Positions 1-12,080 of a stretch of 64,000 nt of DNA are shown one piece after another. This DNA comes from a virus (Duplodnaviria; Heunggongvirae; Uroviricota; Caudoviricetes): IMG/VR virus record IMGVR_UViG_2718218305_000006. One strand, given 5' to 3'. Position 1 is the stretch's first letter; each line of letters begins with the position of its first letter. The position numbers and the translations under genes are program-made. The notes below the pieces were generated by a model. That model was not told where the DNA came from, made no database searches, and saw only the letters and a list, made by a program, of their open reading frames with translations.

Positions 1-1
1 T

Positions 2-280
2 CGCCGCAATGTGGTGGTCCTTTCCCGGTGCTCCCGCGATGGCGGGATGGAATCCGGTGTGCATATCCGGGGTGTTAATCCGGACACCGGTAACAGCGAT
101 AACACCATGAAGGCGGATAACCCGCGCAATGCTTTCTACTGGCGGTTTGTGGAAATGGGGACCGTGAATATGCCACCGCACCCGTTTGTGCGCCCGGCAT
201 TTGATGTGCGCAGTGAACAGGCGGCACAGGTGGCGATTGCTCGGATGAACCGGGCCATTGATGAGGTACTGAGACGATGA
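2..280 (+). CDS. Phage structural protein, HK97 gp10-like head-tail joining/tail completion family; 5' end probably outside the window
   Basis: ORF runs from the window edge; its stop overlaps the next start (ATGA at 277-280); sits just upstream of the major tail gene. Confidence 0.5.
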   Translation, partial: RRNVVVLSRCSRDGGMESGVHIRGVNPDTGNSDNTMKADNPRNAFYWRFVEMGTVNMPPHPFVRPAFDVRSEQAAQVAIARMNRAIDEVLRR

Positions 281-621
281 CGGAGGCGGATTTGTATCCT
301 CATCTGGCGCATCTTGCCGGCGGGCAGGTGTACCCGTATGTGGTCCCCCTGCTGGATGGCAGGCCGTCGGTGGCGCTTCCGTGGGTGGTTTTCAGCCTGA
401 TTTCATCGGTGTCGGCGGACGTGATGGGCGGGCAGGCGGAGTCCTCAGTGTCGGTGCAGATAGACGTTTATGCCGGGACTGTGACGCAGGCGCGTCAGAT
501 ACGTCAGGACGCCCGTGAAGCCATAATGCTGCTGGCCCCGGGATCCGTCAGTGAAATGCAGGACTATATTCCGGAAAACCGCTGTTACCGTGCAACCCTG
601 GAGTTTCAGGTCACGGTGTAA
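277..621 (+). CDS. Phage tail component (DUF3168-like family, tentative)
   Basis: 114-aa ORF translationally coupled to the upstream gene, immediately before the major tail gene. Confidence 0.5.
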   Translation: MTEADLYPHLAHLAGGQVYPYVVPLLDGRPSVALPWVVFSLISSVSADVMGGQAESSVSVQIDVYAGTVTQARQIRQDAREAIMLLAPGSVSEMQDYIPENRCYRATLEFQVTV

Positions 622-640
622 TTTTTTCAACAGAACCCAT

Positions 641-663
641 AACCCGCCGCGTGCGGGTTTTTT
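641..663 (+). terminator. Intrinsic-terminator-like hairpin plus T-run inside the tail operon
   Basis: acccgc-cgcgt-gcgggt stem-loop followed by TTTTT, between the 277-621 gene and the major tail gene. Confidence 0.4.
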
Positions 664-679
664 ATTATCAGGAGGCAGA

Positions 680-1396
680 ATGTCTGCTTTGTATGAACGT
701 TCACAGCTGACGCAGGTGATGATTTCATCTGCCCCGGCGACTGCTGAAACCATGGAGAAGGCGGAATATCTGCGCCTGGACTGCACCATCAAGGAAGTCC
801 AGTTCACCGCCGGTCAGAAACAGGATATTGATGTGACCACGCTCTGCTCCACAGAGCAGGAGAACATCAACGGTCTGGGGGCGTCGTCCGAGATTTCCAT
901 GTCGGGTAATTTTTATCTGAATCAGGCCCAGAACGCCCTGCGTGATGCCTATGACAATGACACGGTGTATGCGTTTAAGGTGCAGTTTCCGTCCGGTAAG
1001 GGCTTTAAGTTCCTGGCGGAAGTGCGTCAGCACACCTGGTCATCCGGTACCAACGGCGTGGTGGCTGCAACGTTTTCACTTCGCCTGAAGGGTAAACCGG
1101 TGTCCTATGTGGTACCGCTGGCGTTTGTGAAAAATCTGGAGAAGACACTTAGCGTGAATACCGGTGCGCTGCTGACAATGTCAGTCAGTGTCAACGGGGG
1201 AACGCCGCCTTATAAACACGCCTGGAAGAAGGATGGTCAGCCGGTAGAGGGACAGACTACTGACACTTTCAGTAAAGCCAATACGCAGTCAGGTGATAAG
1301 GGGGCTTATACCTGCGAGGTAACGGATTCTGCAGAACAGCCGCAGAGCATTACCTCTGATGCGTGTACAGTAACGGTTAATGGTGCGGGCGGATAA
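680..1396 (+). CDS. Major tail protein with C-terminal Ig-like domain
   Basis: RBS caggagg 7 nt upstream of ATG 680; C-terminal Ig-like segment (TCEVTDSAEQPQSITSDACTVTV); followed by G/T chaperones and tape measure. Confidence 0.75.
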   Translation: MSALYERSQLTQVMISSAPATAETMEKAEYLRLDCTIKEVQFTAGQKQDIDVTTLCSTEQENINGLGASSEISMSGNFYLNQAQNALRDAYDNDTVYAFKVQFPSGKGFKFLAEVRQHTWSSGTNGVVAATFSLRLKGKPVSYVVPLAFVKNLEKTLSVNTGALLTMSVSVNGGTPPYKHAWKKDGQPVEGQTTDTFSKANTQSGDKGAYTCEVTDSAEQPQSITSDACTVTVNGAGG

Positions 1397-1401
1397 GGCT
1401 T

Positions 1402-1776
1402 ATGGCAAAAGATCTGAAAACACTGGCGCTGGCCAGACTGTCGGGGTTCCGTCATAAAACGGTGAAGGTGCCGGAATGGAGAAATGTCAGCGTGGTGCTG
1501 CGGGAGCCTTCGGCAGAGGCCTGGTATCTGTGGCAGGAAGTGCTCAATGGTGATGGAGAGGATGACGATACCCTGTCGGTGGTGGCGAAAACCCGCCGTA
1601 ACCTGGAAGCGGATGTGACGCTGTTCTGCGATGTCCTGTGTGATACTGACCTGCAACGGGTGTTCACTCCGGACGACCGTGAGCAGGTGCTGGCCGTCTA
1701 TGGTCCGGTACATGCCCGGTTGCTGCGTCAGGCACTGGAACTGATCGCTGATGCAGAGTCGGCCAGAAAAAAGTAG
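1402..1776 (+). CDS. Tail assembly chaperone (lambda G-like)
   Basis: 124-aa acidic ORF between major tail and tape measure genes; ends in slippery heptamer A AAA AAG. Confidence 0.75.
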   Translation: MAKDLKTLALARLSGFRHKTVKVPEWRNVSVVLREPSAEAWYLWQEVLNGDGEDDDTLSVVAKTRRNLEADVTLFCDVLCDTDLQRVFTPDDREQVLAVYGPVHARLLRQALELIADAESARKK

Positions 1777-10318: not shown

Positions 10319-10344
10319 TTAGCCAGGTAACACAGTGTTATGAC

Positions 10345-10372
10345 AGCCCGCCGGTTCAGGCGGGCTTTTTTG
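10345..10372 (+). terminator. Intrinsic terminator after lom
   Basis: agcccgcc-ggttcag-gcgggct hairpin followed by TTTTTT. Confidence 0.6.
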
Positions 10373-10382
10373 TGGGGTGAAT

Positions 10383-11696
10383 ATGGCAGTAAAGATTTCA
10401 GGTGTACTGAAAGACGGCACAGGAAAACCGGTAGAGAACTGCACCATTCAACTGAAAGCCAGACGTAACAGCGCCACGGTGGTGGTGAACACGGTGGCCT
10501 CTGAAAATCCGGATGAAGCCGGTCGTTACAGCATGGACGTTGAGTACGGTCAGTACAGCGTTATTCTGTTGGTGGAAGGGTTCCCGCCGTCACATGCCGG
10601 GACCATCACCGTGTATGAAGATTCTCAACCGGGGACGCTGAATGATTTTCTCGGTGCCATGTCGGAGGATGACGTCCGGCCGGAGGCACTGCGTCGTTTT
10701 GAACTGATGGTGGAAGAAGCGGCGCGTCACGCTGAGGAGGCGAAGAAGAATGCCGGAGAGGCGGAGACGTCCGCGAGGAATGCCGGCATATCAGCCAGTC
10801 AGGCAGAAGAGAGCGCGGCAAATGCTGACACTTCAGCAGGGGATGCATCGGAGTCAGCCCGGCAGGCGGCAGAAAGTGCAGCCGCTGCAAAGCAGTCAGA
10901 GGAGGCGTCCTCGTCCTCGGCCTCTGCGGCCGCTCAAAAAGCCAGTGAGTCATCACAAAGTGCAGCAGATGCTGAGTTGTCAAAAAAGACGGCAGAAAGT
11001 GCAGCCGGTAATGCAGCCAGGGATGCAACGACCGCAACAGAAAAAGCCCGGGAGTCAGCAGAAAGCGCACAGTCAGCGGAACAAAGCAGGATAGCGGCGG
11101 AAGAGGCCGTAAACCGAATCCCCACCGTGGTGGGACCTCCCGGGCCAAAGGGGGAACAGGGGCCCGCGGGTCCTCAGGGGCCGAAGGGTGATAAGGGAGA
11201 GCGCGGTGACACCGGCCCTGTCGGGGCAACCGGCGAACGGGGACCGGCAGGTGATGCTGGTCCGGCAGGCCCGCAGGGGCCGAAAGGTGACAGGGGAGAG
11301 CGGGGAGAGACCGGTCTGACGGGAAATGCAGGTCCACAGGGTCCAAAGGGAGATACCGGTGCGGCAGGCCCGGCAGGCCCACAGGGACCGAAAGGAGAAA
11401 CAGGTGCGGCTGGCCCGGTGGGGGCAACCGGACCTCAGGGACCGAAGGGCGACCCGGGGGAGACACAAATCCGTTTTCGTCTGGGGCCGGCGAGCATTAT
11501 TGAGACAAACAGCAATGGCTGGTTCCCGGATACAGATGGCGCACTCATCACCGGACTGACCTTTCTTGACCCCAAAGATGCCACACAGGTTCAGGGGCTG
11601 TTTCGGCATTTGCAGGTCAGGTTTGGTGACGGGCCGTGGCAGGATGTTAAGGGGCTGGATGAAGTGGGCAGTGATACAGGCAGAACAGGAGAATGA
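10383..11696 (+). CDS. Tail fibre protein with collagen-like Gly-X-Y repeats
   Basis: Long run of GPxGxxG triplets ([29 protein letters not shown]…); Ala/Ser/Glu-rich coiled segment before it; position after lom. Confidence 0.8.
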   Translation: MAVKISGVLKDGTGKPVENCTIQLKARRNSATVVVNTVASENPDEAGRYSMDVEYGQYSVILLVEGFPPSHAGTITVYEDSQPGTLNDFLGAMSEDDVRPEALRRFELMVEEAARHAEEAKKNAGEAETSARNAGISASQAEESAANADTSAGDASESARQAAESAAAAKQSEEASSSSASAAAQKASESSQSAADAELSKKTAESAAGNAARDATTATEKARESAESAQSAEQSRIAAEEAVNRIPTVVGPPGPKGEQGPAGPQGPKGDKGERGDTGPVGATGERGPAGDAGPAGPQGPKGDRGERGETGLTGNAGPQGPKGDTGAAGPAGPQGPKGETGAAGPVGATGPQGPKGDPGETQIRFRLGPASIIETNSNGWFPDTDGALITGLTFLDPKDATQVQGLFRHLQVRFGDGPWQDVKGLDEVGSDTGRTGE

Positions 11697-11697
11697 C

Positions 11698-11967
11698 ATG
11701 AACATATTAAAAAAAATTATGCAGCGTCTGTGCGGTTGCGGAAAGCATGATGACCGTGAAAACGGGGAGTTACTTACAGCACAGCTGCGACTGGGACCGG
11801 CAGACATTCTGGAGTCCGATGAGAATGGTATTATCCCGGAGCAGGACAGGGTAATCACGCAGGTGGTGATACTGGATGCGGATAAAAAGCAGATACAGTG
11901 CGTGGTAAGACCGCTGCAAATCCTGCGTGCTGACGGGACGTGGGAAAATATTGGCGGGATGAAATAG
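11698..11967 (+). CDS. Small protein paralogous to the C-terminal domain of the upstream tail fibre
   Basis: 89 aa; RBS aggag; [21 protein letters not shown]… parallels fibre C-terminus RFRLGPASIIETNSNGWFPDTD…; conserved copy at 61505-61774. Confidence 0.6.
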   Translation: MNILKKIMQRLCGCGKHDDRENGELLTAQLRLGPADILESDENGIIPEQDRVITQVVILDADKKQIQCVVRPLQILRADGTWENIGGMK

Positions 11968-11986
11968 CCCGACAGCTTCACAAAAA

Positions 11987-12008
11987 CCGGAGTCCGGCTC
12001 CGGTTTTT
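11987..12008 (+). terminator. Intrinsic terminator after the fibre module
   Basis: ccggag-tccgg-ctccgg hairpin followed by TTTTT; same element at 61793-61813; degenerate copy near 12850. Confidence 0.55.
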
Positions 12009-12080
12009 GTTGTCATGTATGGGGGCTGTTTGTTATGACTCCCTGTGTTTGGAATGAATATTTAAATAGGGAGTTTTGTC

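Follow-up and report, generated by a model that had tools for sequence, protein, structure and literature searches.

The 64,000-nucleotide (nt) window analysed here, which is taken from the IMG/VR viral record IMGVR_UViG_2718218305_000006, carries two related copies of a lambdoid tail-tip and fibre gene module, one in each of two prophages that we call X and Y. Very probably these are two related lambda-type host-range modules (L-K-I-J-lom-fibre-small fibre) that belong to two different lambdoid prophages arranged head to tail in an Escherichia coli O157:H7-type chromosome. The tip and fibre genes would have been drawn by lambdoid phages from a common pool, each module presumably having come with its phage; they would then have been reassorted at gene boundaries and patched by homologous recombination among prophage copies in one genome. 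The direct repeat that the two modules form is real and long, and 'near-identical', as an initial annotation of the sequence called it, is too strong a description.

Comparison of the window with itself by BLAST returned two collinear direct-repeat segments that pair X with Y. The shorter one pairs 5529-5910 with 53696-54077 (382 nt, 95.8% identity, gap-free) at an offset of 48,167 nt. The longer one pairs 5912-12035 with 55719-61842 at an offset of 49,807 nt and 88.4% identity over 6172 alignment columns, with 622 mismatches and 32 gap openings (7836 bits); its E value of 0 is far beyond chance. Both tail modules lie on the plus strand, so that the repeat is in direct orientation with its copies some 48-50 kb apart.

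The identity is distributed in blocks, which were measured from a global alignment of the X and Y tail modules read in 100-nt steps and summed per block (coordinates in X). M (5207-5528) is only 52.2% identical in nucleotides to its counterpart. High identity sets in at 5529, 19 nt 5' of the L start codon, and the 5' part of L (5529-5910) reaches 95.8%; the remnant of I, the I-J spacer and the start of J (5915-6226) fall to 72%. The N-terminal two thirds of J (6227-8139) are again 95.8% identical and gap-free, the C-terminal third of J with the J-lom spacer (8140-9619), about 1.5 kb, has strongly diverged (67.5%), and lom, the collagen-like fibre, the small fibre gene and 68 nt past it (9620-12035) are 96.4% identical. 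The DNA of high identity therefore amounts to about 4.7 kb in three blocks of 0.4, 1.9 and 2.4 kb at about 96%. Proteins compared by tblastn follow the same pattern: 44.5% for M, 99.2% over 121 amino acids for L, 95.5% for Lom, 96.8% for the fibre, 96.2% for the small fibre and 85% over residues 12-1086 of J. Exact tracts shared by the two copies number 56 of at least 25 nt, ten of which are at least 100 nt long, the longest being 318 nt. The direct orientation and the extent of more than 6 kb given in the initial annotation are borne out, as is its listing of lom, the collagen-like fibre, the small fibre gene and only the 5' part of L as shared. Its inclusion of M among the genes of high identity is wrong, and its claim for the I-J leader and J holds for the N-terminal two thirds of J and fails for the spacer and the C-terminal third. 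The diverged third of J is the receptor-binding part, and the two copies possibly differ in host range.

Upstream of the tip genes, the two prophages have different tail shafts, as had been proposed from an HK97 gp10-like gene set in X and a Z/U/V set in Y. Genes were assigned by Pfam and by names from the Prokaryotic Genome Annotation Pipeline (PGAP), the latter taken from the annotation of identical or 98%-identical DNA in the complete genomes of strains Z570 and Z885. The shaft module of X (1-5214, plus strand) has no self-match to Y, a weak match of the tape-measure C-terminus (26% of amino acids) excepted. It begins with the 3' end of an HK97-gp10-like gene (1-280), which owes its name to PGAP on 100%-identical Z570 DNA only, Pfam having given no match on the part in the window (11-280, 89 amino acids). 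The gp17 tail completion protein (277-621, Pfam Tail_completion_gp17), the major tail (tube) protein with an Ig domain (680-1396), the tail assembly chaperone TAC_1 (1402-1776) and gene T (1800-2081) follow, the last three by Pfam or by PGAP on identical Z570 DNA, and the module closes with an HK97-type tape measure (2134-5214, Pfam Phage_HK97_TLTM and TMP_3). The upstream genes of X therefore include the domains of an HK97-type shaft (Tail_completion_gp17, Phage_HK97_TLTM with TMP_3).

The shaft module of Y (47532-53389, plus strand), which X lacks, was assigned by Pfam and by PGAP on the 98%-identical Z885 prophage, and its genes are those of a lambda-type shaft. It holds gene Z (48129-48758, Minor_tail_Z), U (48771-49169, Phage_tail_U), V (49177-49929, Phage_TTP_12 and Big_2), G and T (within 47532-53389, so called in the PGAP annotation of the Z885 relative) and a tape measure of lambda type (50735-53389, TMP_2 and Tape_meas_lam_C). 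In the Y-like prophage of Z885, hereafter Y' (as is its counterpart in Z570), PGAP marks T as incomplete with a missing C-terminus (locus L002, 40603-40905, corresponding to window 50392-50735), and the tape measure starts about 50 nt later; a rearrangement may have taken place at the T/H junction of Y.

Downstream of this shaft, the tail-tip genes of Y follow in the lambda order M, L, K, I, J on the plus strand, each with its characteristic domains. M (53386-53715, Phage_min_tail), L (53715-54413, Phage_tail_L positions 3-206 of 206), K (54424-55167, JAB and NlpC/P60) and I (about 55164-55742, Lambda_tail_I) are intact. So is J (55980-59459, 1159 amino acids), which has the full gpJ domain set and an essentially complete receptor-binding domain (profile positions 16-135 of 135); its Z885 counterpart is annotated as an intact gpJ. 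On the 3' side of J lie lom (59526-60125), the collagen-like fibre (60190-61503) and the small fibre gene (61505-61774), the repeat ending at 61842. Both prophages thus have lom and side-fibre genes 3' of J, with the domains Ail_Lom and phage_tail_N, Collagen and Phage_fiber_C.

The same module in X is decayed, and X is a defective prophage, a point that had been missed. M (5207-5548) is present as a diverged homologue of M of Y (53386-53715). L (5548-5910) is truncated to its first 121 codons (Phage_tail_L profile positions 3-93 of 206), and at the junction 5911-5914 a stretch of 1641 nt of Y (54078-55718) is missing, which removes the 3' end of L, all of K and nearly all of I, of which only the last ~24 nt are left. 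J (6173-9651) is a pseudogene with a frameshift between ~9259 and 9394, placed by the tblastn frame switch, and its in-frame product loses most of the receptor-binding domain (Pfam Ig_GpJ_C positions 1-49 of 135 only). PGAP on the identical Z570 sequence likewise calls L incomplete ('missing C-terminus') and J 'frameshifted'; its frameshifts in portal and integrase of the X-type prophage come from the Z570 annotation only and lie outside the window. The remaining genes of the X module are lom (9719-10318, Ail_Lom positions 1-199 of 199, 95.5% amino acid identity to that of Y), the collagen-like tail fibre (10383-11696, phage_tail_N, Collagen and Phage_fiber_C) and the small fibre C-terminal-domain gene (11698-11967, Phage_fiber_C), all on the plus strand. 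The collagen-like nature of the fibre, claimed from the letters, is confirmed by a long G-X-Y run and the Pfam Collagen match; collagen-like proteins in O157:H7 prophages are described in an earlier report (PMC3368898). A synthetic query that joined the X-type tape measure, M and 5' part of L to the Y 3' part of L, K and I found a single-piece match at about 98% in 1970 genomes; because the undeleted arrangement occurs there and Sp12 of strain Sakai keeps L, K and I, the L-K-I deletion of X is the derived state.

The I-J spacer of Y (~240 nt) contains an unannotated open reading frame (ORF) of 39 codons (55788-55907), with a terminator-like hairpin and T run directly after it (55909-55938). 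In X, the spacer (5946-6137, plus strand) is about 72% identical to Y 55747-55938; across 5978-6137 the ORF is present without its ATG, and the hairpin (6108-6137) is kept, a C:G pair in Y being matched by a compensatory T:A pair in X.

Modular exchange, proposed in the initial annotation, is supported because homology begins where M meets L and ends 68 nt past the small fibre gene; a lambda-type tip and fibre module is joined to an HK97-type shaft in X and to a lambda-type shaft in Y. Other genomes, when checked, also showed tip modules of the Sp12 and Y types together with other shaft modules. Within the modules, informative sites among X, Y of the window and Y' of Z885 were examined with a runs test (10,000 permutations). 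They are strongly clustered in the J N-terminal block (38 runs against 72 expected) and in the lom-to-fibre block (34 against 61), and none of the 10,000 permutations reached the observed values; the L 5' block showed no clustering (21 runs against 21.8 expected, p = 0.44). This patchiness of the informative sites means that the modules are patchworks and do not follow one simple tree.

Homogenisation among copies can be seen in the related strains. In Z885 (loci L003 and L007), the tail of Y' and that of the third prophage of the array, Z, show 0 differences over the ~7.2 kb that begin with K and finish with the fibre gene; in Z570 (loci L005 and L006), the two show 0 differences over the ~6.5 kb from K to lom. 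Between the strains, 80 sites in K-I-J distinguish Y' of Z885 from Y' of Z570, and the same sites separate the two Z prophages. Identity within genomes together with difference between genomes is, on these comparisons, what gene conversion (concerted evolution) would be expected to leave as its signature.

The X/Y pair also has the features of a recombinogenic direct repeat, the same orientation and exact tracts well above 25-30 nt. Lengths of 25-30 nt are usually quoted as the least that RecA-dependent recombination needs in E. coli. By these properties the pair should be an adequate recombination substrate, poorer than identical repeats. The ~96% direct blocks (0.4, 1.9 and 2.4 kb) could serve RecA-dependent recombination. 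The deletion would measure 48,167 nt for a crossover in the L block, which would also leave X with a complete L-K-I-J, and about 49,807 nt for one in the J, lom or fibre blocks. Both deletions would remove the two nleG-family genes, the insertion sequence (IS) remnant and Y from int to the crossover point, with its early, lysis, head and tail-shaft genes, and would leave the X shaft fused to the Y tip. With a reciprocal exchange between sister chromosomes this interval would be duplicated, and non-reciprocal exchange would homogenise patches. The proposal that the repeats could drive deletions or duplications is supported by the exact tracts, by the concerted evolution in the array and by published deletions at the Sp11/Sp12 locus (PMC7430833). 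A 47.7 kb deletion that is bounded by an 822-nt direct repeat spans the adjacent Sp11/Sp12-equivalent prophages of strain FRIK804 (PMC7430833), and spontaneous Sp11-Sp12 deletions occur in Sakai (Chen et al. 2013, as cited in PMC7430833). More widely, prophage homology in O157:H7 continually yields inversions, duplications and other large rearrangements (PMC8743559), and for Sakai the pool of Sp prophages, recombination among them and what is defective in Sp11 and Sp12 have been described (PMC2669165).

Several points weigh against this account of the two modules. No rearrangement between the X tail and the Y tail was observed, and no deletion product is visible in the window. The published deletions at the Sp11/Sp12 locus used other repeats, for example the antirepressor gene (PMC7430833). 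Given the ~4% divergence of even the best-matching blocks and the part of J at 67% identity, RecA-mediated exchange will be lower than between identical repeats, and donors of the mosaic patches cannot be assigned, since any of more than ten related prophages per genome could have supplied them. The identity of Y' and Z within strains is read from public PacBio assemblies, in which consensus polishing across repeats could exaggerate it. Finally, the exact window as a whole is absent from the comparison collection of 5,426 complete E. coli genomes, which leaves no counterpart against which its assembly could be verified at every base.

A further possibility, which we consider doubtful, would make Y an inducible phage of recent acquisition whose 96% tail homology with X and dinI-attachment-site (dinI-att) identity could mobilise or repair its defective neighbours, or let Y itself move between junctions. 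A crossover in the L 5' block would then restore L-K-I-J to the X shaft, and movement of Y between array junctions would explain the occurrence of both X-Z-Y' and X-Y'-Z orders. What is shown of Y is that it is a further lambda-type prophage, in which the reading frames of int and xis are full length and the genes of the tail tip are intact; it appears to be the sole member of the array with all of these. Its integrase (18301-19575, minus strand, 424 amino acids) is full length and lies at the left end of Y.

Recent intragenomic duplication, in which a tail module was copied between X and Y within the lineage, is very unlikely. The 96% blocks with exact tracts up to 318 nt could be taken for its trace, and wholesale homogenisation of tail modules does happen, as Y' and Z of the related strains demonstrate. 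However, overall identity is just 88%, and the receptor-binding region of J is very different in the two copies. Each module also has partners of its own elsewhere: the X-type shaft with L-K-I occurs in the 1970 genomes named above, and the Y-type tail and right end adjoin ydfJ in O145:H28 and take another array position in Z570. Partial gene conversion fits two modules of separate origin, and duplication of a whole module is unnecessary.

An assembly artefact, by which one tail module was duplicated or misplaced and a single real copy or some other arrangement exists, had been named as the refutation to look for, and we regard it as highly improbable. Long prophage repeats are a classic cause of misassembly, and the absence of the exact window from the complete genomes would fit an artefact. 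An artefactual duplicate would be identical, though, and these copies differ at 622 positions and by indels, by the 1.64 kb deletion and by the frameshift. Prophage X occurs at 100% identity in many complete O157:H7 genomes, the first 12.1 kb of the window matching many from the UK at 100%, and the order X-Y-Z with the same junction sequences is also found in the complete genomes of Z885 and Z887, which come from another study. It is extremely unlikely that the similarity owes more to selection for what lom and the fibre genes do for the bacterium than to common descent of the phages and recombination: these genes are the best conserved (96.4%) and intact even in the defective X, but the truncated L and the N-terminal part of the J pseudogene, which lie beyond protein-level selection in X, are equally conserved (95.8%), and the patchy three-way site pattern points to recombination.

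Two related modules in two different prophages remain our preferred explanation, and the boundaries of those prophages could be corrected. The right end of X (17863-18257, minus strand) consists of a dinI-like gene (17875-18117) followed by the att region, with the X|Y boundary at about 18257; that of Y (62129-62524, minus strand) has the same organisation, with a dinI-like gene at 62141-62383 and the Y|Z boundary at about 62524. These positions come from five aligned junctions, among which the attR junction (Y'/ydfJ in Z570) departs from the common sequence right after '...CTATGAATTATGGATTTC', which corresponds to window 18257 and 62524, and matches to Y-like prophages in other genomes end at 62523-62527. 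We had considered dinI as the left end of Y and Z and rejected this, as the attR junction next to ydfJ puts dinI at the right end. Because the core of that junction lies just past dinI, the gene is right-end cargo of X and Y. From L as far as att, the right arms of the two prophages share homology everywhere but in the cargo slot that follows the fibre genes.

A second set of direct repeats connects the left ends of Y and Z and pairs 17863-18840 with 62129-63106 (978 nt, 93.8%) and 21586-22039 with 63547-64000 (454 nt, 92.5%). In this pair 17881-18266 is identical to 62147-62533, and the first ~390 nt of the dinI-int pair (dinI and ~150 nt) are identical in both copies and in Z570, differences beginning at 18267. 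The start of Z, which is of the Sakai Sp11 type, occupies 62561-64000 (minus strand) with a truncated integrase (62561-63112) and a truncated recE. Window 62126-64000 is 99.8% identical to the start of a Z570 prophage with the gene order of Sakai Sp11, and that prophage shares with Sp11 the truncated int and recE, a lambda-type head and three nleG genes. The initial annotation counted two prophages; X and Y are present as it said, and a third starts at about 62.5 kb. The window thus contains three prophages, the Sp12-like X, Y and the start of the Sp11-like Z.

The array is flanked in Z570, Z885 and Sakai by ynfA/rspA' on one side and by the 3' part of ydfJ on the other. In K-12, the Qin prophage occupies this site. 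The window itself has no chromosomal flank, and the question of X standing at the ynfA-proximal side was viewed in Z570, whose DNA matches window 1-18840 at 99.68%. From these related genomes we infer that the whole X-Y-Z array would lie at the ydfJ site, with the same dinI-att segment at each junction.

The order of the prophages differs among close UK strains, being X-Z-Y' in Z570 (L005 29761-31476) and X-Y-Z in Z885, Z887 and the window. Every junction has the same DinI protein (WP_001120551.1), and among the prophages of Z570 and Z885 only Y' has intact int and xis. The difference in order could stem from re-integration at another junction or from recombination between identical dinI-att segments.

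X agrees closely with Sp12 of Sakai (NC_002695.2, 2204089-2255027), to which window 2-17977 aligns in four collinear megablast segments at 96.1-99.8%, broken only by the L-K-I gap. Both have an HK97-type shaft, the tip module, nleG cargo, an IS256'::ISEc8 remnant, dinI and an Sp11-type prophage in the same array, and in both J is disrupted, the host specificity of Sp12 being listed as defective (PMC2669165). They differ in that Sp12 keeps the 3' end of L, K and I, which X has lost, in that J is broken by one frameshift near its 3' end in X and into three ORFs in Sakai, in the IS629 in dinI, present in Sakai and absent from X, and in the tape measure gene (3081 nt in X, 3243 nt in Sakai). By this alignment, X represents Sakai Sp12 in a local version, with an HK97-type head and tail shaft. 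Y is absent from Sakai.

The published Sp11-Sp12 region at ydfJ represents the same site and the same principle, direct repeats of adjacent lambdoid prophages removing ~48 kb (PMC7430833). The window differs from it by the extra prophage Y between the two, as in Z885 and Z887, and the published deletion used an 822-nt antirepressor-gene repeat and not the tail modules (PMC7430833). The rearrangements described in O157:H7 (PMC8743559) are alike in that homologous prophage segments act as recombination substrates and yield structural variants; those are inversions and duplications that act between prophages lying far apart, the Stx2c prophage being a frequent partner, and the X/Y tail pair is not covered. 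The text of that paper names Z1723, Z1766, Z1767 and strain 9000 and does not mention Z885 or Z887; the comparison genomes (the Z strains and strain 9000) have adjoining GenBank accessions. Compared with the tail-tip region of phage lambda (M-L-K-I-J-lom-stf-tfa), Y has the same gene order and Pfam families. In place of stf/tfa the window has the collagen-like fibre and the small fibre-C-domain gene, its I-J spacer of ~240 nt holds the small ORF and terminator-like hairpin, and X is without K and I.

Among the complete genomes, the tail module is a multi-copy family, with matches in 4999 of the 5426 and with 15-17 matching places per O157 genome among those listed. Close matches exist only for X (100%) and for the late region of Y (98%, the Z885-type prophage). 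Queries with four long stretches of the window (12-36 kb, 16.9-40 kb, the X|Y junction and the Y|Z junction) gave no contiguous match at high identity in any of the genomes. The integrase allele and early region of Y (18267-40000) likewise had no contiguous close match there, with a best coverage of 61-66% at ~94-96%, and the integrase allele is 92% identical to the nearest one in this context. The Y|Z junction without nleC was absent from the same genomes. In the cargo slot of Y, there is a clean gap of 1417 nt, nleC included, relative to the 98%-similar Y-like prophage of Z885 and Z570 (L003 9221-10637), and the nleC-less version has a 99.6% match adjoining ydfJ in the O145:H28 strain RM13514.

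Near-duplicate lambdoid tail modules, the tandem Sp11-Sp12 region and its deletions are already known and published for this locus, a further point that the initial annotation had missed. The novelty of the window is that of a strain-level variant, in which Y stands as an additional prophage between the Sp12-type and Sp11-type members and the Sp12-type one has also lost L-K-I; an array of an L-K-I-deleted X, an nleC-less Y with a new int allele and a new early region, and an Sp11-like Z is not found in the complete genomes. Repeats of this kind are the reason that short-read O157:H7 assemblies break at prophages, that strain typing by genome structure can change fast and that effector genes behind tail fibres, here two of the nleG family, can be lost or reshuffled. 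The useful yield is the corrected boundaries, the three tandem prophages at ydfJ and the list of defects in X, and its practical value is moderate.

Between the tail repeat and the dinI-att segment, X carries 5.8 kb of cargo of its own (12036-17862), compared with 286 nt in Y (61843-62128). It comprises an nleG-family gene (12081-12656), nleG7 (13367-14017) and an IS256 remnant split by ISEc8 (14167-17825). A 175-nt segment made up of the 3' end of the small fibre gene and the DNA downstream flanks the first nleG-family gene at 86% identity (11864-12038 and 12741-12906) and recurs in Y (61671-61842). The fibre 3' end appears to be a homology anchor for the swapping of effector cargo.

A scan of both repeats (1-12100 and 53386-61900) at the Rfam gathering thresholds found no structured RNA, and all eight matches fell in the early and late-regulatory regions of Y. 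These matches (23021-23072, 31378-31553, 34508-34709 and 35484-35885) are to DicF, sok, c4-a1b1 / isrK / C4, a weak transfer RNA (tRNA)-like family, STnc100 and AgvB, and ARAGORN found no tRNA gene anywhere in the window. Between the Q-like gene of Y and a large esterase gene lie an ORF6N-domain ORF (34744-35319), small RNA matches and the weak tRNA-like Rfam match; no stx-like ORF was noticed 3' of the Q-like gene, although no search with stx sequences was made. AgvB, an anti-GcvB small RNA, is matched on the minus strand of Y at 35824-35885. The early region of Y also encodes, at 29643-31137 on the minus strand, a eukaryote-like Ser/Thr protein kinase (264 amino acids) beside a PP2C-type phosphatase (238 amino acids), and this kinase presumably resembles the Stk kinase of phage 933W.

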